Sequence record: LC739532.1
Length of the DNA: 64,000 nt
Direction: 5' to 3' (one strand)
Origin: Escherichia phage phiWec177
Below, one piece after another: positions 6,558-28,864 of the stretch; the first letter of the stretch is position 1, and each line of letters starts with the position of its first letter. Below the pieces are notes generated by a model. That model ran no database searches. It was not told where the DNA came from and saw nothing but the letters and a program-made list of their open reading frames with translations. Both the position numbers and the translations under genes were made by a program.

Positions 6558-6566
6558 AACTTGACA

Positions 6567-13269: not shown

Positions 13270-15636
13270 ATGCGCATGGTAAATGACCACGCAGAAGTGA
13301 TTAAGAGTTCAACTTCTTTGGAGACATCTCAAGCACAGATTACAATGACACCTGAAATGTTCAGCCTTTTGAGTTCTGGTGTATATACCTTTAAAGAAAG
13401 GGCAGTGATTCGTGAACTGTCATGTAACGCAGTAGATGCTCAGAAAGAAGCTGGAAAAGAGAATATCCCGTTCCATGTGCATTTACCTACTCGTTTTGAG
13501 CCTTACTTTGAAGTCCGTGATTTTGGAACTGGATTGACTCATGATAAAGTTATGAGTTTGTACCTAAACTACGGGGCTTCTACGAAGAATGACTCTAATG
13601 ATTACATTGGTGCAATGGGTATCGGTTCAAAATCTCCATTTGCAATTGCTCAGTCATTCACAGTATCTAGCTATGTTGATGGTGTTGTTAATAAGTACTC
13701 TGTTTACCTTGAGAATGGTATCCCTCAAGTAACTAAGCTGACCACTAACCCAACAAAAGAACCTAATGGTTTAGCTGTACGTGTGGCAGTTGCTGACCAC
13801 CGTATTTCAAAGTTCTTTGAAGAGGCTGGTCACGTATACTCATACTTTGCTGTAAAACCAGAAAGTAATATTGTATATGATGACGTGTTAGCAGACATGA
13901 ATGTCATTGCTCGTGAAGAAGGTGTTTATGACGCTATGATTCATAAGCAAAGCTGGCGTTCTAGTGGTAACAGGACAGAGTTTAATGTGGTGATGGGTAA
14001 TATTGCCTATCCAGTTAATATGGAAGCATTACTTGGTGATGATTTCTTCAAAGTCTTGCCAGAGTTTTTCCGTAGGAGCGTAGACCTTGTAAACATTTAC
14101 ATGCCTATTGGTTCAGTTGCTATTGCAGCTTCTCGTGAAGCATTGCAGATGAATGATACGACAAAAAATGTTATCATTGAGGCTACTAAAAAGATAACTG
14201 AAGCCATTACAAAGGATGTTATCAAGAAAGTTAACAGCCAACCTACACTCATGGATGCTGCACAGGCTTATGCTGAGTTACGTTTGAACTCACGAGAGAT
14301 GTTTAATGTTGTGTGTCCAAAGCTAGAGTGGGGAGGCGTTAAGCTTGATTCTCTGGAAGTAGAATTACTAAACATCCGTCGTGGGATTATCTACGCAGAA
14401 GACGGCTCAGTCATTTATGAACGTGACGGTAAAGGTAATATCAAGGTTGATAGGAACGGGAACAATATCCCTAAAGTGGATTATCTTTATAATCCAGTTG
14501 CTTATGTCAAGTTCAACTCTTTAGAGAGTAAGATTCGTGCAACAGCACTTTCCTACACTCAAGAGGCAAGTATGTTCAATATCTTTGGTGCAATGCGTAA
14601 AAGCCAAATTGAACAGTTTTTGTTCGTGATTAATGACCGTCGTAATAAAAATGGCACTGAGAAGACTGTAGGCCGCAATCAGATTCTGCGTGGTGCATGT
14701 CGAGATTACGCCAGTGAGTCAAGTCTGTTTCACAGATATAATGGTATTGTGTTTGTATTCTCGACTGAAAAAGAGCTAGATGACTTAATCAACCTACACA
14801 AACTTGATAAAAGCTTGTTAAAGATTGTGAAGATGTCTGATAAGGAACATCACTATCAGCGTAAAGAAGCTGTAAGAGGTGTTGTAAAACTCTGGAAAGC
14901 TGTTCCAGCAGAAGGTGTAGCCTCATACACAGAGGTGTCAGAAGACTTAGACACAATTGAAGAACCTCAGCTTTACATTAAGGCAGTTGGCGACACAGTT
15001 GATGGTGAATGTTTTTGCTCATCTCCAGAAGATGTAGCTAAGTCAGTTGCTAATGTTATAGGGAAGACAGTCTATGTTTTCCGAAAAGCAAATTGGAAAA
15101 AGATACCAGAAGACTGGATTGAAGTAGATGAGAAGCTCTTGAACGACAGCTTAACTGATGTTCATTGGATTAATCATAACAGGTATATGACACGCATCTG
15201 TATGCGTGGTGTCCTTAACCTTACAAGCTGTTGGATTATTACCAGAAACTTTACGTTCAATAACAGGAAGATTTCTGATGGTTATTGCTATTCACGGGAC
15301 ACAAACAAAACTATCTTCCTAGAAGGTAATGAAGATGCTGTTGAGGCAATGTTCGGTAAAATCCAATACGTTGCTGCACAATTTGCATACACTTACACTA
15401 TTAGTGTGTTGCAAGATTTGAAAAGGTGTCTTGATAATGATACAAAGCTTTACAAGAAAATTAAGAAAGCTGGTGACCGTATGTTTATTAAGGTGACAAA
15501 CTACTTCTCAAAAAGAAAACAAGAAAACTTCTTGCTTTCTCATTTAGATTGGAATAAAGTGTCACCCATCGAAGTGAGTAAGTTCTTGGGCTTTGATGTG
15601 AAGTGTGTTCCAGAAGGGACTACAATTTACGATTAA
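13270..15636 (+). CDS. rIIA: rIIA-like protein with GHKL/histidine-kinase-like ATPase domain
   Basis: N-terminal Bergerat-fold motifs (ELSCNAVDA; RDFGTGL; GAMGIGSKS); 788 aa; followed by rIIB-like gene. Confidence 0.6.
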   Translation: MRMVNDHAEVIKSSTSLETSQAQITMTPEMFSLLSSGVYTFKERAVIRELSCNAVDAQKEAGKENIPFHVHLPTRFEPYFEVRDFGTGLTHDKVMSLYLNYGASTKNDSNDYIGAMGIGSKSPFAIAQSFTVSSYVDGVVNKYSVYLENGIPQVTKLTTNPTKEPNGLAVRVAVADHRISKFFEEAGHVYSYFAVKPESNIVYDDVLADMNVIAREEGVYDAMIHKQSWRSSGNRTEFNVVMGNIAYPVNMEALLGDDFFKVLPEFFRRSVDLVNIYMPIGSVAIAASREALQMNDTTKNVIIEATKKITEAITKDVIKKVNSQPTLMDAAQAYAELRLNSREMFNVVCPKLEWGGVKLDSLEVELLNIRRGIIYAEDGSVIYERDGKGNIKVDRNGNNIPKVDYLYNPVAYVKFNSLESKIRATALSYTQEASMFNIFGAMRKSQIEQFLFVINDRRNKNGTEKTVGRNQILRGACRDYASESSLFHRYNGIVFVFSTEKELDDLINLHKLDKSLLKIVKMSDKEHHYQRKEAVRGVVKLWKAVPAEGVASYTEVSEDLDTIEEPQLYIKAVGDTVDGECFCSSPEDVAKSVANVIGKTVYVFRKANWKKIPEDWIEVDEKLLNDSLTDVHWINHNRYMTRICMRGVLNLTSCWIITRNFTFNNRKISDGYCYSRDTNKTIFLEGNEDAVEAMFGKIQYVAAQFAYTYTISVLQDLKRCLDNDTKLYKKIKKAGDRMFIKVTNYFSKRKQENFLLSHLDWNKVSPIEVSKFLGFDVKCVPEGTTIYD

Positions 15637-20184: not shown

Positions 20185-20964
20185 ATGGGTATTGTAAAAG
20201 TTGTAAAAGGTAACTTACTAGCTGCCTTCAAAAACACAGACATTGAGTTAATTGCTCATGGTTGCAACTGTCGTAACCTCATGGGTGCTGGAATCGCTCA
20301 AAAAATTGCTAAGATTTTCCCAAAAGCTGAAGAAGCTGACCGGAAGTTCCATAAAAAGTTTGGCTACAGTGCCCATGATATCGGATACCAGATGGCTGGT
20401 GAGGTGTCACATGCTCGAACGGAGTATGGTTACATTTTTAACCTATATACACAGTTGGATGTTGGGAAGTGTGCATCATACCGATACTTAGTGGAGTCAC
20501 TAGAAAAACTCCGTAAATTTTGCTGGCTGCACAACATTCGTAAGATTGGTTTACCCATGATTGGGGCAGGTATAGGCGGTTTAGATGCACAAGCTGTGAA
20601 AAGCCTCATTAATAGTGTTATGTATAACGTTGATGTGTACCTATACGTCTATGATGAAGCAATGGCAAGTGTAGTTACCACTAAGTATGCTACCTCAGCA
20701 CCACAATTCTATGATGGTGTCGTGCTAAGTGACGGGAAGACTAATCAAGTTACCCTCTATCAGCTTGTTGATGGCAAGGTTGAGGTTAGTTACCCTCTGG
20801 TTAGTGAGATGGGTATGTGTAACAGTGAAATGTTCCCAGTTGACCCGTTTGGAAGATATGAAGGTGTATTCTTTGATAACTACCCAGCAGCGTACATCTA
20901 CACAACAAATCAGGATGAAGTTCACTACTTGCTGTATTCTAAAAAGTTCAAATTCATAAGCTGA
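20185..20964 (+). CDS. Macro-domain protein (ADP-ribose binding/hydrolase fold) with C-terminal extension
   Basis: Macro-domain signature IAHGCNCRNLMGAGIA ... LPMIGAGIGGL in the first ~150 aa. Confidence 0.65.
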   Translation: MGIVKVVKGNLLAAFKNTDIELIAHGCNCRNLMGAGIAQKIAKIFPKAEEADRKFHKKFGYSAHDIGYQMAGEVSHARTEYGYIFNLYTQLDVGKCASYRYLVESLEKLRKFCWLHNIRKIGLPMIGAGIGGLDAQAVKSLINSVMYNVDVYLYVYDEAMASVVTTKYATSAPQFYDGVVLSDGKTNQVTLYQLVDGKVEVSYPLVSEMGMCNSEMFPVDPFGRYEGVFFDNYPAAYIYTTNQDEVHYLLYSKKFKFIS

Positions 20965-21039: not shown

Positions 21040-21210
21040 TTTTCATTTTCAATTTGTGCAGGTATCTGGAGGGGTCTGTACAGATATCCCAAAAAATCTC
21101 ATCGCCGGATAGAAAAATCATTTTCAAAACGTGCAGAGAAAAATCAGGTCGGGCAAGAAAAATCATTTTAGAATTGTGCAGGTAGGTGGGTGTAGGTGGG
21201 GATGTCGCCA
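21040..21210 (+). repeat. Three spaced copies of a TCATTTT-N-TGTGCAG(G) motif
   Basis: ttttcattttcaatttgtgcagg / aaatcattttcaaaacgtgcagag / aaatcattttagaattgtgcagg seen directly. Confidence 0.45.
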
Positions 21211-21359
21211 TTTCTCACAAGGCTACCACATCTAAAAAGAAAAGTCAACAGAAAAATTTGTAGCGGATTGAAAAATAATTCTTGATTGTAGTTCTGTTTT
21301 GTGGTAGTCGTGCGCGCCCGTTCCTCTCCCAAACTTACAAAAATATTTAATAAAAACTA

Positions 21360-21388
21360 TTGACACACAAAACAGGTTTACGTAATAT
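21360..21388 (+). promoter_or_regulatory. Sigma70-type promoter (TTGACA -N17- TAATAT)
   Basis: Consensus -35 and near-consensus -10 with 17 bp spacer upstream of the small-gene array. Confidence 0.55.
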
Positions 21389-21437
21389 TTGCATCAGACG
21401 GGCAAGCAAGCCCACTCCCTAAACTGGAGATTCTAAA

Positions 21438-21644
21438 ATGTTATATCAACGCCAATTGATGATTGTAGACAATAACAAGACTAAAAAGCGCCGTTTCTTT
21501 ATGCTTATTTGTGATGTATGGCAACGTATCTCAGAAAAGGATTTTGATAAATATGTTGATACATCAATCAGGTCAGATTGTTATTTGACAAATCACACAA
21601 GACAGTTTACAAGACATACAGCAGTTTACTACTATGACGTTTAA
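21438..21644 (+). CDS. Hypothetical small protein (first gene of small-gene array)
   Basis: Preceded by CCTAAACTGGAGATTCTAAAATG initiation cassette. Confidence 0.45.
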   Translation: MLYQRQLMIVDNNKTKKRRFFMLICDVWQRISEKDFDKYVDTSIRSDCYLTNHTRQFTRHTAVYYYDV

Positions 21645-21818
21645 AAGGGCTTGACAATGATTAAAGAAGGCAATGTAATAAGCTACAAAGATTTAGACGG
21701 ATACCCAAAAATTGGGAAAGTTTTCTACCTTTACAAGTCAGTGATGGATAATGACTGCATAGCCCTAACAAATGGCGACAAGATAACCATGAAAGATTTT
21801 ATAAAAATTATTTCATAA

Positions 21819-21905
21819 AGTGCTTTACATGGGGTTTAAAAAGGTAGTATCTTAAGCCCCAGATAAAGAGCTTTACCACTCAATCCTAAATTGGAGAACT
21901 TAAAA
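21819..21905 (+). repeat. Intergenic cassette type A copy 1 (hairpin + RBS)
   Basis: AAGTGCTTTACA..GGGG..-loop-..AAGCCCC..AGATAAAGAGCTTTACCACTCAATCCTAAA(T/C)TGGAG; shared with 22287, 23361, 24156, 25423. Confidence 0.6.
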
Positions 21906-22286
21906 ATGGCATACCGCGCACCGAAATTCATCAATAAAGAAAATTTTCGTAATGTATTAGAGAAGGCGCTTGATGAAAAATTTAACGGCAAAATAATTGT
22001 TGTTCACTCGTTCAATTTTAAGTATGATATCAACGGGAATAAAATCAACCATTACACGGCAACCATGTTAGATGGTACTCTTTCAAGTGAAAAAACAATT
22101 CTCCATGCACTTGCAGGACGTGGTAAAAACCTGATAAGATGCGATAAGAGACGTTATCAGGGTGGCGCATATGGTTATGATGATGCTGTTTATCATCTTG
22201 AAAATATGGGCTATTCAGTGGAAAAAGCTGGAGTGTCTCAAATAATCGGCAGTGACGGCTATGTGACAATTTTCAAAATTAACTAA
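21906..22286 (+). CDS. Hypothetical protein
   Basis: ATG 21906 downstream of type A cassette. Confidence 0.45.
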   Translation: MAYRAPKFINKENFRNVLEKALDEKFNGKIIVVHSFNFKYDINGNKINHYTATMLDGTLSSEKTILHALAGRGKNLIRCDKRRYQGGAYGYDDAVYHLENMGYSVEKAGVSQIIGSDGYVTIFKIN

Positions 22287-22374
22287 TAAAGTACTTTACA
22301 GGGGGCTTACAGTTCGATAAAGTAAGCCCCAGATAAAGAGCTTTACCACTCAATCCTAAACTGGAGTTTCAAAA
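22287..22374 (+). repeat. Intergenic cassette type A copy 2
   Basis: Near-identical to 21819-21905. Confidence 0.6.
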
Positions 22375-22671
22375 ATGAAACTATCAAATAAAGCCCGTGA
22401 AAATCTAAGCAAGTTACTTAACAAAATTGATTTTATTGAAACATCAAGGAATAGTCATGATGTTATGGAATGGTTACACGGCAAAATAAAAGGCCGTCGT
22501 GTAGTAATTTGCTTATGGAATAGTTGCAGGGAATATAAAAAACCTGTATTACAAGTCAATATCTACGATGATACTTTTAAAAGCCCTGTAAAGTCTAAAA
22601 GCGATTTATTAGAATCTTATGAGATAACTGTAAGTGGCAAAGTATCACGTAAAGAGGAAACACCGTGTTAA
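22375..22671 (+). CDS. Hypothetical protein
   Basis: 98 aa ORF after cassette. Confidence 0.45.
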   Translation: MKLSNKARENLSKLLNKIDFIETSRNSHDVMEWLHGKIKGRRVVICLWNSCREYKKPVLQVNIYDDTFKSPVKSKSDLLESYEITVSGKVSRKEETPC

Positions 22672-22997
22672 TGACTGGTATCACTGCAATCATTGCCATT
22701 TTCGCGCTATATAAGGCATATAAAGCCTATAATCTAGCAAATAAGGCAATCACACAGCAGGTTAGCAATAACCTTGTAGAGAGCTTTCTAGGACGCCTCA
22801 GTGATGAGCAAATAAAGCGGCTAGAGATGAGCTTCAGATATAAAGCGAAAACCTATCAGATAAGTGACATCTTCAAAGATGATTTTCAGTTAGTCGATGA
22901 TTATAATTCACTGATAAATGCTTTGAATGTCAGTGACTTAAAAGATTATTACGTTGTAATTGTTCAAGAATTGAGCAAACGAAAAAATTCCTCTTGA
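22665..22997 (+). CDS. Hypothetical membrane-anchored protein
   Basis: 110 aa, N-terminal hydrophobic helix. Confidence 0.4.
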   Translation: MLMTGITAIIAIFALYKAYKAYNLANKAITQQVSNNLVESFLGRLSDEQIKRLEMSFRYKAKTYQISDIFKDDFQLVDDYNSLINALNVSDLKDYYVVIVQELSKRKNSS

Positions 22998-23009
22998 TTT
23001 TGGTTTTTA

Positions 23010-23087
23010 AAACAAGTAAATTACTAATCAACGGTGAGGGAATGAACTTCCCCACTAAGTAAAGTCCTTAAACTAGGAGATTCAAAA
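23010..23087 (+). repeat. Intergenic cassette type B copy 1 (hairpin + RBS)
   Basis: TCAACGG(G)GAGG..-loop-..CCCC ACTAA(A/G)TAAAGTCCT(T)AAACT(A/G)GGAGATTC; shared with 23884, 25100, 26180, 26780. Confidence 0.55.
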
Positions 23088-23360
23088 ATGTATACTACTA
23101 ACAACGGTCGCACTTTAAACGTAACCCTACGCCACTATGTGAACGGTGTAATGCACTTCGAGGATTTACAAGCCGAACAACACATTTTAGATTGGCAACT
23201 TGCAGGACTCCAAAAAACTGTTACAGGATACGGGAAAAAGATTCCAACTAGCTGGAAAGTATACTACGAAGGCCGTTTGCGCAGAATTTATCAAGATGTA
23301 TACAGCAATAGCGCAACAAGTTACATCATGGTAAAAGGTAAAAAGCTGCATTTAGCATAA
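23088..23360 (+). CDS. Hypothetical protein
   Basis: 90 aa ORF after type B cassette. Confidence 0.45.
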   Translation: MYTTNNGRTLNVTLRHYVNGVMHFEDLQAEQHILDWQLAGLQKTVTGYGKKIPTSWKVYYEGRLRRIYQDVYSNSATSYIMVKGKKLHLA

Positions 23361-23446
23361 AGTACTTTACAAGGGGCTTATAGTTCGATAAAGTAAGCCC
23401 CAGATAAAGAGCTTTACCACTCAATCCTAAACTGGAGAACTTAAAA
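23361..23446 (+). repeat. Intergenic cassette type A copy 3
   Basis: Near-identical to other type A copies. Confidence 0.6.
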
Positions 23447-23851
23447 ATGGCTATTAATAACCGTGAATTATCAATTTTAAAAGCACGTTTGACCGTTAAC
23501 CGGATTAATGTTATTACGTCATCAGCACCAGATGAAACATTGCACAGCATTATTGGGAAGATTCAAAGTATTATTTTAGACGTTGAAAACGTAAAAAGTT
23601 CATTGGCTGACGTTGCAGCAGGTATCACGCTAGACGGTGCGCAATATGAAATGATTGATATGCTAGGCAAATCTAAGGTAATGAATAGGGAGTTAGATTT
23701 GAAAATGTTTAGATTTGCTGTTAAAGTATGGCTATCCGTCGAGTATGACGCTAATTTTGCAATCGCTGATTTCTTTGCCACTTGGTTACAACGTAATTTG
23801 ACAAATCACGATTTTCGTGATGTCTGTGATGCAATTTATGCAGAACTCTAA
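23447..23851 (+). CDS. Hypothetical protein
   Basis: 134 aa ORF. Confidence 0.45.
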   Translation: MAINNRELSILKARLTVNRINVITSSAPDETLHSIIGKIQSIILDVENVKSSLADVAAGITLDGAQYEMIDMLGKSKVMNRELDLKMFRFAVKVWLSVEYDANFAIADFFATWLQRNLTNHDFRDVCDAIYAEL

Positions 23852-23860
23852 AAAATTTTG

Positions 23861-23889
23861 TTGACACTGATTTTTAGATAGGTTAAATT
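23861..23889 (+). promoter_or_regulatory. Candidate promoter (TTGACA -N17- TAAATT) inside type B cassette
   Basis: Consensus -35, weak -10. Confidence 0.35.
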
Positions 23890-23951
23890 ACACATCAACG
23901 GGGAGGCGATAACCTCCCCACTAAATAAAGTCCTAAACTGGAGATTCTAAA
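23884..23951 (+). repeat. Intergenic cassette type B copy 2
   Basis: CAACGGGGAGGCGATAACCTCCCCACTAAATAAAGTCCTAAACTGGAGATTCTAAA. Confidence 0.55.
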
Positions 23952-24155
23952 ATGGCTATTATCAACGGCTTACACATTGAAACAACTCACATCAAAGATA
24001 TTAAAGTTGGTGATATAGTTCTCTTTCACGGCGTAGAAAAAACTGTCACGGCGAAAGATATTACAGAAGAATCTTTCATGGGCCGGTCACTCTTCGGTGA
24101 TTCTTATTGCTTAGGTTACCGTGCAGTTTTAAAAGTTGTCAAAAATAACAAATAA
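23952..24155 (+). CDS. Hypothetical small protein
   Basis: 67 aa ORF. Confidence 0.4.
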   Translation: MAIINGLHIETTHIKDIKVGDIVLFHGVEKTVTAKDITEESFMGRSLFGDSYCLGYRAVLKVVKNNK

Positions 24156-24240
24156 AGTACTTTACAAGGGGCTTAAAAGTTGGTATCTTAAGCCCCAGAT
24201 AAAGAGCTTTACCACTAAATCCTAAACTGGAGATTCAAAA
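24156..24240 (+). repeat. Intergenic cassette type A copy 4
   Basis: Near-identical to other type A copies. Confidence 0.6.
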
Positions 24241-24783
24241 ATGAAATGCTTTCATGGTACTACTCAAGAAAACTTTATCAACCTGATTAATAACGGTGAT
24301 AAACCATCGGGCGCATGGAATTGTTCGGATATGGACGGCAATTTTTACGTTTATCCAGAAAATAAAATCTATGGCGACGATGAGGAAGAGATAACAGCCG
24401 AAGGTATCCAACAAGCTCTAGGCAATGCCACTATCACCGCAGCTTTTCAGATGAAGACTCAAAATATTGTTATCTTAGAACTCGATATTCCAGAGGATGA
24501 GCTAAACGATGATTATTCTTGTGATAATATGTCGAGTGTAGCAAGTTTTACAGAGTACTTTGATGTAAGTTGGATTAAAAAGGTTTACGTAACAGAATTT
24601 AATGCGATGTATTCGCCTTTTTGTCTTCCTTCACTGGATAACCCAAATATGAACTATCTTGATGAGTCTCTGGAGCTTCTCGCTAAAAGTGTTCAACAGT
24701 CGGACAGTATTCAGGTTTTTTGTGACATCATGGATACACTAACGGGAAACATCACAGAGAGAGACTTAAAGAGCTTTTTTTAA
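24241..24783 (+). CDS. Hypothetical acidic protein (N-terminal FHGT motif; speculative ADP-ribosyltransferase-like fold)
   Basis: 180 aa; FHGTT at residues 4-8, FYVY about 30 aa later, acidic LELDIPEDELNDD segment. Confidence 0.4.
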   Translation: MKCFHGTTQENFINLINNGDKPSGAWNCSDMDGNFYVYPENKIYGDDEEEITAEGIQQALGNATITAAFQMKTQNIVILELDIPEDELNDDYSCDNMSSVASFTEYFDVSWIKKVYVTEFNAMYSPFCLPSLDNPNMNYLDESLELLAKSVQQSDSIQVFCDIMDTLTGNITERDLKSFF

Positions 24784-24811
24784 AACCTATACAATCACCT
24801 TATAAACACTA

Positions 24812-24833
24812 ATCAGCCCCTTACAGGGGCTTT
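24812..24833 (+). terminator. Rho-independent terminator
   Basis: AGCCCCT-taca-GGGGCT hairpin followed by TTTT. Confidence 0.5.
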
Positions 24834-24848
24834 TAGAGGGCTTAAATC

Positions 24849-25082
24849 ATGCTAACAACCGTTTATCTCATCCTCTCAATTTGTAATGGCCATTCATGCG
24901 ATTTTAAAGGGCTTGAGGAGTTTACAGGGAGTAAAGAGAATGCTGTTCAAGTTTGCCAGATAGCAAGGCAAGACTATCCCGCAAGTGATGATATACAATG
25001 TTACTTTAAGACAGAAGATGACGAAGGAATCTATTTCGACAGTGTTGATGGACAATATGAGATTATCATTGAAAAAGACTAG
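24849..25082 (+). CDS. Hypothetical small protein
   Basis: 77 aa ORF. Confidence 0.4.
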   Translation: MLTTVYLILSICNGHSCDFKGLEEFTGSKENAVQVCQIARQDYPASDDIQCYFKTEDDEGIYFDSVDGQYEIIIEKD

Positions 25083-25099
25083 ACAAGCCTGATAAAAAT

Positions 25100-25173
25100 C
25101 TGTAAATTGTCAATCAACGGGGGGGGGGAATGACCTTCCCCACTAAATAAAGTCCTAAACTGGAGATTCTAAA
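25100..25173 (+). repeat. Intergenic cassette type B copy 3, containing a homopolymeric G tract (about 10 G)
   Basis: CAACGGGGGGGGGGAATGACCTTCCCC...; the G run replaces GGGGAGGG of sibling copies. Confidence 0.55.
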
Positions 25174-25422
25174 ATGTATACTAAAACGCAACTTAAAAGC
25201 ATGGTTAACAATGGTTTAATGGATGAAGTCTACAAAGAATGTAGACGCTATGGAAAAATCATGGATAAGTCTAGTTATGAGTATACTCACACAATAGATT
25301 TCAAAACTAATGAAAAACAAACTGACTTTATCACTGTAATAGTTATTGAATATAAACACTTGCTGTGGACTTTTGAGCTAGTAAAAGGTGAGTGTATAGA
25401 AATCGAATACAAAGACGCTTAA
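25174..25422 (+). CDS. Hypothetical small protein
   Basis: 82 aa ORF. Confidence 0.4.
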   Translation: MYTKTQLKSMVNNGLMDEVYKECRRYGKIMDKSSYEYTHTIDFKTNEKQTDFITVIVIEYKHLLWTFELVKGECIEIEYKDA

Positions 25423-25501
25423 AAGTACTTTACAGGGGGCTTAAAAGTTGATATCTTAAGCCCCCAGATAAAGAGCTTTCCTAAACTGGAGATTCAAAAA
25501 G
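25423..25501 (+). repeat. Intergenic cassette type A copy 5 (internally deleted)
   Basis: Same 5' half as type A, shortened 3' part ending ...CTAAACTGGAGATTCAAAAAG. Confidence 0.5.
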
Positions 25502-25648
25502 ATGACACATACTATTGAGACAGTTTTTAACAACCCTGTATTCTCAGAGATGATTTTCTCATTTGTCATGATGTTACTAGTAAAAACCATGAAAAAAGCA
25601 GAAAAACTGCATTTAAAGAAAAAATCTATTGTAAACCGTCTTAAGTAA
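25502..25648 (+). CDS. Hypothetical 48-aa hydrophobic peptide (below ORF-track cutoff)
   Basis: ATG 25502 right after cassette RBS; hydrophobic core FSEMIFSFVMMLLV. Confidence 0.3.
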   Translation: MTHTIETVFNNPVFSEMIFSFVMMLLVKTMKKAEKLHLKKKSIVNRLK

Positions 25649-25694
25649 AGATAAAGTATCTAGCAATCTCACTTCCTAAACTGGAGAATCTAAA

Positions 25695-26036
25695 ATGGCT
25701 TATGTAACCGTAATTACCGATAAAGAGAATTCATCTTGGTCAACTCAGGTTAGTGACAAGATGTCACCTATGCAGTGCCTAAAATACTTTGAACAGTGGA
25801 ATAGAGGTGAGGATACAAGCCCCTTTCAAGTGATGCAGATTATCCATACAGATAACGAAGGGAATAAAACGACTTTAAATAGTGAGTACTACGCAAGCCG
25901 TTTTGAAACGAGAAGTAGAACAATGAAGCTTCTACGTGAATCCGGTTATGCTCATATTGCCGCTCTAATCTGGGATGACCTGCTAAAAAGTCAGCGTATC
26001 AGCTATGTAAAACCTGAAAAAATATTCATCAGTTAA
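25695..26036 (+). CDS. Hypothetical protein
   Basis: 113 aa ORF preceded by CCTAAACTGGAGAATCTAAAATG. Confidence 0.45.
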   Translation: MAYVTVITDKENSSWSTQVSDKMSPMQCLKYFEQWNRGEDTSPFQVMQIIHTDNEGNKTTLNSEYYASRFETRSRTMKLLRESGYAHIAALIWDDLLKSQRISYVKPEKIFIS

Positions 26037-26179
26037 TCAATAACTTACAAAAAACTTTTAAAAAAGTGTTGACAATACCCCTTGACATTGGTAACTTTGT
26101 TCGAGGGGGTTTATCTAAAAGGGATTCACTTAAAAGATTCTTTATAGATAAGCTTAAAAATTGCTTGCATTCAACTATC

Positions 26180-26255
26180 AAAACAAGTAAATTACTAATC
26201 AACGGGGAGGCAATAACATCCCCACTAAATAAAGTCCTAAACTGGAGATTCTAAA
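26180..26255 (+). repeat. Intergenic cassette type B copy 4
   Basis: AACAAGTAAATTACTAATCAACGGGGAGGCAATAACATCCCCACTAAATAAAGTCCTAAACTGGAG. Confidence 0.55.
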
Positions 26256-26786
26256 ATGAACAAATTTCAAGCTATCAACCACATTCGTTCAAATAGTGTC
26301 ATGTCTAAGCCTGTTAAAGACACATATGAGTTCCGTTGTAATGGGGTACACTTTGCAACCATCACTAAATCAGAAAACGGGGCTTATTACGTTCATCGTC
26401 GTAATGTTTATACCGTTGTAGTCTCTCACTTTATGCAAGCTGTAGCAGAGTTATTACCGTTATTCTTAGAGATTTACTTAGATGAGTGTAAAAACGTTCA
26501 CAACCACGTTAAAAACCTTTTAAACGGTTATAAAATGGCTTATGAGCGTTCTATCAAGTCCTTAAACAAGTTCTATAAAGCCCCTGCAAATACTGTTTCA
26601 ATGGCTTACAGTGTAAGCGGTGAGTTGGTTAGTCTCTTCGAAGTGGAAGAAATCGAACTATATAACTCACGCCCTAGCGGTTACTCTAAGACACTGGGAG
26701 AGGGCTTATCTTTCAATATCAAGAACTTAGAGAAAACTTTAAAAGATATTGAAAAAGATATTGACGAGACAATCAAAAATCTGTAA
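26256..26786 (+). CDS. Hypothetical protein
   Basis: 176 aa ORF. Confidence 0.45.
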   Translation: MNKFQAINHIRSNSVMSKPVKDTYEFRCNGVHFATITKSENGAYYVHRRNVYTVVVSHFMQAVAELLPLFLEIYLDECKNVHNHVKNLLNGYKMAYERSIKSLNKFYKAPANTVSMAYSVSGELVSLFEVEEIELYNSRPSGYSKTLGEGLSFNIKNLEKTLKDIEKDIDETIKNL

Positions 26787-26852
26787 ATTGTCAATCAACG
26801 GGGAGGGAATGACCTTCCCCACTAAATAAAGTCCTAAACTGGAGATTCTAAA
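26780..26852 (+). repeat. Intergenic cassette type B copy 5
   Basis: Near-identical to 25100-25173 but with GGGGAGGG instead of the G run. Confidence 0.55.
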
Positions 26853-27101
26853 ATGGCAACTATCCGCGCCACTGTTAACGAATTTGGTTTTTACTCTCTG
26901 GATGTTAAATTTGACCTTGTAGGCACTGACAACGCCTTTGAAATGGTGAAAGGTCTTATCAGTCAGACCATCAAGGACTATAACCCCTCTAATGAGTTCT
27001 GGAAAGAAACAAAACAGGAAGTTCTTAAAGATGGTTACACTTTTCACTATTGGGGTGAAAAAATCGTCTCCCTGTACTACGACAAAGAAGGCACTAACTA
27101 A
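26853..27101 (+). CDS. Hypothetical small protein (last plus-strand gene before non-coding region)
   Basis: 82 aa ORF. Confidence 0.45.
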   Translation: MATIRATVNEFGFYSLDVKFDLVGTDNAFEMVKGLISQTIKDYNPSNEFWKETKQEVLKDGYTFHYWGEKIVSLYYDKEGTN

Positions 27102-27139
27102 ACACCGCAGCGGGGCTAAATAGCCCCAGATACCTGAAC

Positions 27140-27166
27140 AGCCCCTATTTAAAGGGGCTTTTTTAC
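27140..27166 (+). terminator. Rho-independent terminator (tandem hairpins)
   Basis: GGGGCT-aaat-AGCCCC then AGCCCCT-attta-AAGGGGCT followed by TTTTTT. Confidence 0.6.
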
Positions 27167-27340
27167 GTCTATTGAATTCTTATACAATCCCTTTCCCTCA
27201 CCTTCCTAGAATCTTATCAGACCTTAAAAGCAATAACTCTATAGTCTACTCTATAACCTCTTATCAAATCAACTAAGTGGCATTGTTACCAATCCCTTAA
27301 ATATAAGCCCATAACCCGAAAGGGAAGGGCAATCCCTTAA

Positions 27341-27430
27341 ACGCTCTATAACGCTCTATAACGCTCTATAACGCTCTATAACGCTCTATAACGCTCTATA
27401 ACGCTCTATAACGCTCTATAACGCTCTATA
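27341..27430. repeat. Perfect tandem repeat, 9 x 10 bp (ACGCTCTATA)
   Basis: Nine identical contiguous 10-mers seen directly; no spacers. Confidence 0.95.
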
Positions 27431-27599
27431 ACAGCCTTATCAACCTAACTTAAGCAATCATATTAACCCACTCTAAAAAGCCCTTTATAGAGCTTCTCAG
27501 AGCCTTAAAAGAATCTTATAAGGGTGTAAGCTTTATCGTCTCGTTAGTATTCTTGTGAATATCTAAAAAGGACTTGTTAGTGTCTTAAAAGTATGTTAT

Positions 27600-28260
27600 A
27601 GGGGCTATGAAGTTACGTAAAAGTAGCTTAAAAGTAGCTTAAAAGTTACGTAAATGCTAGCCCCCTTAACATTTTCTTAACAATTTCTTAACAATCCCTA
27701 CATAGTTATACTTTTAAGGCACTTGTTAGCAACTTGTTAGCCCCTTGTTAAATCTCTGTTAAGACCACGTAAAAGCCTTGTAAGAGTCTTTGACATAGCC
27801 TTAAAAGCTCCTGTAAAGCCCTATAAAGAGCTATCCATACAGTTGAGGGGTAAATACTAGGAAGAGACTTAAAAGAGCTTATAAAGAGCTATAGAGAGCT
27901 TTTAAGAGGTATGTTTAAGGAATCACTAGGGGTTGGTAACAATACCAATTAAGAGGGAAAGGGAACGATAAGACCAGAGATAGTGACCATGTTAATAGCT
28001 TGTTAAAAAGATTAAACACTTGTTAGGAACTTGTTAATTATCTTAACAAAATAACTCTTTAAAATTAACTTGTTAGCTCTTGTTAGGCATCTGTTAAGAT
28101 TCTGTAAAGACTATTCAGCACTTGTTAGAAAACTGTTACAACCTTGTTAGTTCTGTTAAGAAACTGTTAAGACCTTTGAAGAGTTGTTAAGAAGATGTTA
28201 GAACTGTTAAGAGATTGTTAAGGATATTTTAAAATTTTGCAAAGTACTTGTAAGGGAGCT
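27600..28260. repeat. Dense array of (C)TTGTTA(A/G)/CTGTTAAG heptamers and their complements at about 10-12 bp spacing
   Basis: More than 25 copies counted by eye, many at one-helical-turn spacing; also AAAAGTAGCTT x2 and TTCTTAACAAT x2 direct repeats. Confidence 0.8.
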
Positions 28261-28864
28261 GTTAAGGGCTACCAAGCAGATATACATCTTCTACAGATAT
28301 TTTTGAGTTCCTTCAAAGACCCTAAAAAATGACTTGATAGTCCTATTTTATAAAAATTTTAAGATTCTGAATAATTACCTATACAGTCTTTTAAAAATAC
28401 AGGTAGAAACAGGCTTATAAGATACCTTGTTAGTACCGTGTTAGACCTTGTGAGATAAGGCCTGTAAAGATATTCCTGTTAAGTTTGTTAAAACAGTCTA
28501 TATAGAGGCTTAGTAATACCTAGTGAACACCTATAGAGGGTATCATAGCTGACATAGAGATTAAGAGGTGTATAGGAGCTTCTAAGGGGGTGTAGAGAGA
28601 TGGTTAAGGTGATTGTATAGGCTGTTAAGAAGGTTTGTTAGAGGGCTAGTTAGAAGGGTTATACAGAGGGCTATTAAGACCACTAGATAGTTACTAAGAT
28701 ACTATATAGTACTATATAACTATATATATAGAGAGTAAGATTAAGAAGGCTGTTAAGAAGGATAGATATTTTATTCACATATGATGGTGACCCAGAGGTT
28801 GGGACAACCGATAAAATTTTATAAAAATTAAAAAGCCCCCAATTAAGGAGGCTCTTAAGATATT

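Follow-up and report, generated by a model that had tools for sequence, protein, structure and literature searches.

Two families of repeated, hairpin-bearing units punctuate a block of small genes in Escherichia phage phiWec177; what do they do for the genes they precede? The block lies in a 64,000-nucleotide stretch of record LC739532.1 (hereafter the window, the whole stretch of DNA analysed) and spans 5.7 kb, matching open reading frames ORF15-23 of phage Felix O1, from a macro-domain "phosphatase" gene to the terminator t23. The source phage is a Felixounavirus, a Felix O1-like myovirus, and the first 3.8 kb of the window are 100% identical to Escherichia phages phiWec172 and phiWec174. 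We conclude that the region is probably an early-gene expression array made of two cassette families resembling the promoter(early)-stem-loop (PeSL) elements of T4-type phages, each cassette combining an expression signal with a patch of homology. The anatomy of the units, their conservation pattern, their pairing as RNA, the positions of the junctions, the mosaicism and the homogenisation are read from sequence and comparison; promoter activity, start sites and the role of the hairpins in RNA are what we infer from them.

Type A (AAGTACTTTACANGGGGCTTA, up to 3 mismatches) occurs five times, at 21818, 22289, 23360, 24155 and 25423, and type B (TAAATTNNNNATCAACGGGGAGG) likewise five times, at 23017, 23884, 25103, 26188 and 26784; 0.01 copies of either are expected in shuffled sequence. 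Both families end in a common 23-nt translation-initiation region (TIR), whose motif CCTAAACTGGAG is found in 11 copies with 0-1 mismatch from 21418 to 26844 and on the + strand only, a twelfth copy being the variant CCTTAAACTAGGAG at 23066; a GGAG Shine-Dalgarno (SD) motif stands 8-10 nt ahead of the ATG in 12 of the 15 genes of the array. All three motifs are confined to 21.4-26.9 kb, and a scan of the complete 85,970-bp phiWec172 genome, of which the window is the rotated reverse complement, found no other site. A preliminary description of this DNA had reported five units of each type at these places and a shared initiation region, which our counts bear out (12 copies of the latter in the region 21418-26844). 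It had also placed a "hairpin + RBS" cassette (RBS, ribosome-binding site) ahead of nearly every gene: 12 of the 15 genes have the shared TIR, genes 21657, 22671 and 24849 have no cassette, and the putative promoter had been overlooked, the units consisting of promoter, hairpin and RBS. Its five type A copies were all found, but one of them, A5, is shortened, and a half-cassette is present at 25649-25694 besides.

One account of such repetition would be tandem gene duplication, with the repeats as leftovers of duplicated coding sequence. Nothing beyond the repetition itself speaks for it, and we give it next to no probability: the repeats run from stop codon to start codon, and the 15 proteins fall into 15 different PHROGs, every one of unknown function, and show no mutual similarity (best BLASTP E = 0.095). 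The units are intergenic, and the view of the cargo as unrelated small proteins of unknown function stands. All five type A units start at the TAA stop of the preceding gene and finish at the next ATG; type B units also finish at the ATG, and only their non-repeated −35 box and spacer overlap the 3′ end of the preceding gene, the stop codon of that gene falling within the −35 or the −10 or directly ahead of one of them. The cargo genes, all on the + strand and encoding 48-180 aa, extend over 21438-27101 (21438-21644, 21657-21818, 21906-22286, 22375-22671, 22671-22997, 23088-23360, 23447-23851, 23952-24155, 24241-24783, 24849-25082, 25174-25422, 25502-25648, 25695-26036, 26256-26786 and 26853-27101). 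The unrelated genes 23088 and 25174 have identical first 10 nt after the cassette (ATGTATACTA), as do 23447 and 23952 (ATGGCTATTA), and 6 of the 15 cargo genes begin Met-Ala; the homology of the cassettes, or else selection in favour of a suitable second codon, therefore reaches slightly into the cargo, by a few codons.

The type B units suggest what the repeats are for. Their five copies align over a conserved core (TAAATT, ATCAAC, a G-run/C-run hairpin, ACTAAATAAAG, TIR and ATG), and in every copy TAAATT is preceded, at a distance of exactly 17 bp, by a −35-like hexamer in otherwise unrelated surroundings, often the end of the preceding gene. In B1 (22994-23087) this box is TTGATT (22994-22999), which includes the TGA stop of gene 22671-22997, and is followed by TAAATT (23017-23022), the 5′ hairpin, the TIR variant CCTTAAACTAGGAG and the ATG at 23088; in B2 (23861-23951), TTGACA (23861-23866) and TAAATT (23884-23889) precede a predicted start at about A23897, the hairpin GGGGAGG/CCTCCCC (23900-23919), the TIR (23932-23943) and the ATG at 23952; in B3 (25080-25173), TAGACA (25080-25085) includes the TAG stop of gene 24849-25082 and is followed by TAAATT (25103-25108), a hairpin with a G10 run (25117-25126) and the ATG at 25174; B4 (26165-26255) has TTGCAT (26165-26170), TAAATT (26188-26193), a weaker hairpin and the ATG at 26256; and in B5 (26761-26852), TTGACG (26761-26766) lies within gene 26256-26786, TAAATT (26784-26789) includes the TAA stop of that gene, and hairpin, TIR and the ATG at 26853 follow. 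All five are on the + strand. Among 143 distinct type B matches from 53 sources, the −10 is TAAATT in 109 and mostly TAGTAT, TAAAGT or TAATAT in the remainder, and the six commonest −35 boxes at a spacing of N17 account for 124 (TTGACA 36, TTGCAA 27, TAGACA 20, TTGATT 16, TTGACG 13 and TTGACT 12); A-rich runs (AAAAAGA, AAAATT) are present in several contexts. Promoter function best explains why a promoter-like box should hold one distance in several surroundings that are unrelated, which makes type B a candidate σ70 promoter.

The first unit of the array, P1 (21360-21437, + strand), is a divergent type B: TTGACA (21360-21365), N17 and TAATAT (21383-21388) are followed by a small hairpin GGGC/GCCC (21400-21413), the TIR CCTAAACTGGAG (21418-21429) and the ATG at 21438, and its start-site geometry (ATC, then A) is that of type B. 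P1, type A and type B all have an A as the eighth base downstream of the −10, with a C before it; the predicted type B transcript therefore begins 2-4 nt ahead of the hairpin, which starts 10 nt after the −10 and has 6-8 bp and a 5-nt loop. Pairing of this hairpin is kept in almost all of its 62 sequence variants, with 94 G·U vs. 6 U·G pairs, and it therefore pairs well only as + strand RNA; the strongest z reached by type B is that of B2 (−17.6 kcal/mol, z = −3.4). The same hairpin considered as a minus-strand terminator was rejected, as there are no minus-strand genes here and its T run is weak. The GenBank record of phiWec172 is linearised exactly at the G run of B3 (25117-25126), and its joined ends add 12 nt relative to the window, an excess that overlapping assembly ends in a homopolymer, and not biology, probably explain.

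In type A, the predicted promoter and the hairpin occupy the same DNA. The 5′ edge of the unit reads TAA-AGTACTTTACA, the TAA being the stop codon of the preceding gene, and TAAAGTAC is the sole sequence between the coding sequence and the −35. In the reference copy A4 (24153-24240), the stop codon (24153-24155) is followed by the −35 TTTACA (24161-24166) and the −10 TATCTT (24184-24189); an outer helix pairs 24155-24164 with 24200-24209 and an inner helix pairs 24168-24176 with 24188-24196; and the predicted start A24197, the TIR (24221-24232) and the ATG at 24241 complete the unit. A1 (21816-21905; TAA stop, TTTACA at 21824-21829, N18, TATCTT, two-helix hairpin and the TIR variant CCTAAATTGGAG) precedes gene 21906-22286, A2 (22284-22374; −35 at 22295-22300, −10 TAAAGT) precedes gene 22375-22671, A3 (23358-23446; −35 at 23366-23371, −10 TAAAGT) precedes gene 23447-23851, and the shortened A5 (25420-25501), with a 10-nt deletion between outer helix and TIR, precedes gene 25502-25648; all are on the + strand. 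The half-cassette (25649-25694, + strand; AGATAAAG... and TIR) corresponds to the 3′ part of type A and lacks both promoter and hairpin; it precedes gene 25695-26036. Across 102 distinct copies (179 instances) from Felixounavirus-type loci, the −35 TTTACA is invariant (102/102), and TAnnnT follows 16-18 bp downstream in 101, as 12 different hexamers that include TATCTT, TAAAGT, TAAGAT and TAGTAT; shuffling only the letters of the loop gave TAnnnT in a mean of 16 and a maximum of 25 of the 102. Five TTGACA "variants" of type A, taken as cases of promoter selection overriding the outer helix, were false positives that have no hairpin.

The type A hairpin is composed of an inner helix GGGGCUUA(A)/(U)UAAGCCCC and an outer helix AAGU.CUUUA/UAAAG.AGCUU separated by a 3x3 internal loop (9-10 bp, loop, 9 bp; ~19 bp paired in all). 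It folds with −21 to −25 kcal/mol and z of −2.1 to −3.8 (A1, −22.9 and −2.8; A2, −24.2 and −3.4; A5, −25.1 and −3.8), and an Rfam scan gave nothing above noise. In 42 non-redundant copies, Erwinia phage versions included, 98.2% of cells are paired vs. 35-64% in slid registers; both sides have changed in 15 cells vs. 3.3 ± 1.5 in shuffles (0/500 reached this); and G-C to U-A swaps occur in both helices. One inner pair is U·G in 41 of the 102 copies and another pair of the structure in 95, which on the opposite strand would be C·A mismatches; selection therefore acts on the structure as it forms in + strand RNA. Placed between −35 and start site, the hairpin overlaps the −10, and the predicted start (the A after CCCC) is immediately 3′ of the inner helix; cassette-born transcripts would therefore be without the hairpin, and read-through transcripts would carry it.

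Such selection on RNA could mean that type A is not a promoter at all but an intercistronic processing element, of RNase III type or associated with RNase E, at which long P1 and type B transcripts would be cut into stable single-gene mRNAs, in the manner of the T7 early region. In that region, two-helix hairpins with an internal loop (R0.3-R1.3) lie between small early genes as RNase III sites, and type A with its two helices and internal loop resembles them. Covariation and sense-strand wobbles would both be expected under this account, as would the formation of the structure in read-through transcripts only; every type A unit here lies downstream of P1 or a type B promoter, inside the unit of that promoter; and the outer helix explains part of the conservation of CTTTA and AGATAAAGAGCTT. 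Pairing does not account, however, for the loop TA at its fixed distance from TTTACA amid variable neighbours (101/102 copies, 16/102 in shuffles) or for the invariance of the unpaired CA of TTTACA; and in Erwinia phage M7 the −10-to-start geometry is the same at the hairpin-free first promoter as at the hairpin-embedded units. T7 RNase III sites carry no promoter, whereas type A has a predicted one, and with ~19 bp paired type A stands at the lower size limit for RNase III. An RNA-only role in place of the promoter is thus unlikely in our judgement; the two functions are compatible, PeSLs being defined by both, and, as at the T7 sites, a type A hairpin could be retained at the 3′ end of the upstream mRNA and stabilise it.

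The hairpins might instead be transcription terminators or insulators that make each gene an isolated transcription unit. The precedent is a PeSL stem-loop of RB49, which cut lacZ read-through as strongly as rrnB T1, and at four places elsewhere in the window (8650, 12679 and 18603 on the + strand, 32891 on the − strand) a canonical terminator hairpin and its T run follow 2-5 nt after the end of a good σ70 promoter, the predicted start therefore lying inside the 5′ arm, so that both kinds of signal do occur joined in this phage. The array hairpins themselves do not look like these, and we regard this reading as doubtful: an intrinsic terminator has a GC-rich hairpin with an immediate U tract, whereas AGAUAAAG comes after the type A hairpin and ACUAAAUA after that of type B, neither hairpin having a U tract or being listed by the + strand terminator scan; a type B terminator, downstream of its own predicted start, would also terminate its own transcript. 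Terminators and terminator-like hairpins with T runs look different. One such hairpin, at 24815-24840 (AGCCCCTtacAGGGGCT and TTTT; + strand), is 3′ of gene 24241-24783, was placed on the − strand by the terminator scan and is followed by gene 24849-25082 with an SD of its own; another, at 27140-27165 (+ strand), is the canonical intrinsic terminator that closes the array and corresponds to Felix O1 t23 (Whichard 2010, Table 2). Two further promoter-hairpin composites outside the array, at 6561 and 15642 (+ strand), have the hairpin in the promoter spacer, the sequence at 15636 reading TAA-AGTGTTTGACA-AGGGGCTTcaaAGCCCCT-TAGAAT; the window holds 16 such composites vs. 0-5 in shuffles.

If the units are expression cassettes, comparison of relatives shows what else they do. 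We compared nine GenBank relatives and about 25 IMG/VR loci (about 35 loci), judging the completeness of arrays from gene-family maps. The order of the backbone is conserved and nearly every genome has its own gene combination: there are about 40 gene families and 75 distinct adjacencies, and the five arrays that are complete by our criterion have five different gene orders, so that relatives do not share one gene set. Variation comes in gene + cassette units, as presence or absence, slot replacements (for instance x17 in place of the 23952 gene), one duplication and two translocations, and accessory genes usually have like cassettes on both sides ([A] x16 [A], [B] x22 [B]). Three indels were dissected: the 25174-25648 insertion in the window, whose right-hand junction is the half-cassette at 25649-25694; the deletion in Felix O1 of the counterparts of genes 23952-25082; and the x23 insertion in phage REP8. 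The short allele agrees in all three with the left copy on its upstream side and with the right copy on its downstream side, changing over between −10 and ATG, and the crossovers fall at differing points of the shared sequence, not at one fixed nucleotide. In phage IME338, which is without the last array gene, the B5 promoter core (ATCAACGGGG) is joined directly to the terminal hairpin remnant GGGGCTAAATAGCCCC (L002:8718-8790; 27111-27131 in the window); this deletion therefore used only a few bases of G-run homology.

The cassettes also mark where gene order changes. Gene pairs with no intervening cassette are never separated (22375/22671 and 24241/24849, 27/27 each), and genes without a downstream cassette have a single successor over 71 instances, with one exception, vs. 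up to 7 successors for genes followed by a cassette (successor entropy per gene; Mann-Whitney p = 0.007). A 2x2 test of variable vs. fixed adjacencies gave p = 0.08 and was uninformative, nearly all adjacencies being variable. Type B copies in different slots of the same genome are as alike (identity 0.874) as those in the same slot of different genomes (0.871), vs. 0.841 for different slots of different genomes, and two TIR alleles stand at a ratio of 11:1 in the window and at 1:11 and 18:0 in other genomes; both patterns point to homogenisation of the cassette copies within genomes.

Units that travel with their genes might be autonomous mobile elements or targets of a dedicated recombinase, as in miniature inverted-repeat transposable elements, integrons or homing systems. 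Their boundaries are precise, and the PeSL papers had proposed G-run/C-run hairpins as protein targets. We nevertheless hold this to be very improbable: the units have no terminal inverted repeats or target-site duplications, occur at this locus only and recombine at varying points, none of the 15 array proteins is in a PHROG of known function, and a Pfam scan of 10 of the 15 gave no match. The resemblance to integrons lies in unrelated small genes between structured recombination sites and in a content that varies between close relatives; the array differs in having neither integrase nor attC-type site, a putative promoter and an RBS of its own in each cassette, and homologous recombination as the presumed route. 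The cassettes, which the preliminary description had called mobile, are so in the sense of linkers for homologous recombination, not as autonomous elements.

Our proposed mechanism follows the preferred reading of the units as PeSL-like expression cassettes. Type B would act as a host σ70 promoter with its −35 in or just after the end of the preceding gene; the hairpin at the 5′ end of its transcript may stabilise the mRNA, because mRNA decay in E. coli is 5′-end-dependent, and an A-rich leader and the shared SD/ATG region would follow. Type A would carry a promoter, TTTACA-N17-TAnnnT, superimposed on the two-helix hairpin in a unit starting at the upstream stop codon, and in read-through RNA the hairpin may serve as an attenuator, a processing site or a 3′ stabiliser. 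As direct repeats of 60-90 bp, the cassettes would be sites of homologous recombination within one genome or between co-infecting relatives, which could delete, insert, replace or move gene + cassette units and leave the expression of the neighbours undisturbed.

How close is this to known systems? The PeSL concept was established on RB49/phi1 and then carried over to T4/PST and KVP40/nt-1 (Arbiol et al. 2010, PMC2839356; Comeau et al. 2014, PMC4122927); the cassettes consist of a σ70-type promoter, an overlapping or adjoining stem-loop and an SD, and the stem-loop of the commonest subclass is either located between −35 and −10 or shares bases with the −10 box (Arbiol et al. 2010, PMC2839356). 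The array shares this anatomy: the promoter motif is TTTACW-N17-TAYWAT in the T4 pair and TTTACA-N17-TAnnnT here, a likeness at sequence level; a G-run/C-run stem-loop lies between −35 and −10, overlaps the −10 or follows just downstream, with the SD at the end; units are intergenic, from upstream stop to downstream start codon, type A fitting the commonest subclass; and they cluster among small ORFans in a hyperplastic region, with indel and replacement crossovers inside the cassette. The analogy with PeSLs drawn in the preliminary description thus gains support from the anatomy, from the hyper-variable block and from the indel junctions. Unlike the PeSL phages, this one belongs to the Ounavirinae, with 86 kb and all units in a single locus; promoter and terminator activity and mini-circles are on record for PeSLs, whereas the present units are known from sequence alone. 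The array is further distinguished by two tightly homogenised families in place of a loose motif class, by the 23-nt initiation region common to both, and by a type A hairpin extended by a second covarying helix; type A, with TAAAGTAC alone ahead of its −35, seems to lack the AT-rich block that PeSLs have there, and several type B contexts have A-rich runs. A literature search for the PeSL concept applied to Felix O1-like phages found none, and the comparison supports regarding the array as a PeSL-type system in a second phage lineage.

Two earlier reports touch on such repeats. PAK_P1-like phages, myoviruses formerly grouped with Felix O1, have a repeated 41-nt early-promoter motif in a variable region (2015, PMC4309531): a perfectly conserved intergenic repeat, TTGACA-N17-TAgAAT, in 5-6 copies within an 11-kb variable, presumed early region. 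The sequences are unrelated, and no hairpin, shared RBS or link to breakpoints is described there. The Felix O1 genome paper lists both of our repeats without interpretation and not among its predicted promoters, and states the organisation of transcription to be unknown (Whichard et al. 2010, PMC3185647); its 57-bp repeat (CTTTACATGGGGCTTAAAAGTCTGTAAAGTAAGCCCCAGATAAAGAGCTTTACCACT) is type A, and its 39-bp repeat (TTGACACTGGTTTTTAGATAGATTAAATTACACATCAAC) is the promoter half of type B.

The design is not limited to Felixounavirus. The type A unit is present in 283 phage records, of Felixounavirus, Mooglevirus and, at 77-81% identity, 26 Erwinia Kolesnikvirus phages, and in IMG/VR an exact 20-mer of it matched contigs of 53-94 kb only. 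The array of Erwinia phage M7 is of the same design, with a common initiation region of its own, CCTTAWAAAGGAAT; its type A units show a compensated third stem pair (GGTG.../...CACC) and −10 boxes TAGTAT, TAGTCT, TACCAT and TAATCT, and a second type of hairpin-embedded unit is present. As for timing, gel reverse-transcription PCR of Felix O1 found ORFs 16, 20, 21 and 22 to peak 5 min after infection (Whichard et al. 2010, PMC3185647); these ORFs are directly downstream of A or B repeats, and the experiment is the sole experimental support for the early timing that we infer for the array.

Several points weigh against our interpretation. In the same Felix O1 experiment ORFs 17, 19 and 23 peaked at 25 min, and "early" is thus not uniform (Whichard et al. 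2010, PMC3185647). A literature search for Felixounavirus transcriptome, 5′-end or start-site data found none, and promoters and start sites are therefore predictions. With 3-4 of 6 positions in common with TATAAT, the −10 of type A is weak, and its last T doubles as a stem base, while four bases of the −35 are also in the outer RNA helix, which gives their invariance two possible causes. The lack of a U tract, and of a listing by the + strand scan, for both hairpins leaves PeSL-type termination unproven here. As the copies are closely related, our p-values are nominal, and they and the shuffle statistics overstate independence. Finally, most variation is presence or absence at fixed slots, and it could be mainly loss and exchange between relatives rather than capture of foreign genes.

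A more ambitious combination of these elements is possible, and we advance it tentatively: type A would be bifunctional, the TIR would be a global switch, and the whole would form a recombinase-free, integron-like platform carrying takeover or anti-defence cargo. Type A may contain a DNA promoter whose transcript starts at the 3′ foot of the hairpin, with read-through RNA that folds and is processed or attenuates; if so, each gene would be served by two transcript classes with different fates. The 23-nt TIR, used by no other phage gene, could be a handle for RegA- or RegB-like post-transcriptional shut-off of the entire array, and the array would then be a plug-and-play platform kept across three Ounavirinae genera. 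For the cargo, an anti-defence or takeover role is conjecture, the sole hint being one weak ADP-ribosyltransferase-like fold: the product of 24241-24783 may be an ADP-ribosyltransferase of a minimal H-Y-E kind. Searched by profile against PDB sequences, this 180-aa protein gave no match, and a single-sequence AlphaFold model of it (predicted local distance difference test, pLDDT, 38) was too poor to use.

The borders of the array have features of their own. Directly upstream, gene 20185-20964 encodes a macro-domain-like protein annotated as "phosphatase" (phrog_335, E = 6.5e-85); it is kept in all relatives and forms the fixed left border of the variable block. Between the terminator of this gene and the first array promoter, a 23-nt motif (ATCATTTTCAAATTGTGCAGGTA-like) occurs three times, at 21042, 21117 and 21162, and Erwinia phage M7 has four similar copies (TTTTTCATTTTCAATTTGTGCATAG) in the same place; the motifs at 21042-21184 may be operator sites controlling entry into the array. 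Inside the array, the 219-bp gap ahead of B4 contains a further promoter-like site (26069-26110, + strand), TTGACA-N17-TAACTT overlapping a CCCC...GGGG hairpin, which was read from the sequence and not listed by the promoter/terminator scan. At the right end, a terminal remnant of a type A hairpin, GGGGCTAaaTAGCCCC AGATA (27111-27131, + strand), lies directly 3′ of the last gene. Beyond the array terminator, ~1.7 kb without an ORF (27170-28860) extends to the first minus-strand gene and is dense in short strand-biased repeats: CTATAACGCT stands nine times in tandem at 27340-27432, YTGTTAR reaches 14.8 per kb vs. 0.47 per kb elsewhere, and CTTAAAAG is also enriched. In M7 a similar stretch dense in repeats, though of other sequence (TCTTCTAAAC-like), occupies this position. 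Conceivable roles for the region are those of an origin, of a site of packaging or terminus, and of an array bound by protein.

Felix O1-like phages find wide use in Salmonella and E. coli typing, biocontrol and therapy, and our analysis provides a predicted promoter and leader map of the most variable block of their genome. A cassette array explains why close relatives differ mainly in this block. Its cassettes would mark natural expression-ready slots for engineered payloads, and the about 40 accessory families make a short list for anti-defence and host-takeover screening. Modular cassette shuffling would thereby extend from T4-type phages to a second, unrelated myovirus lineage, which speaks for a general way of carrying accessory early genes that can be exchanged.

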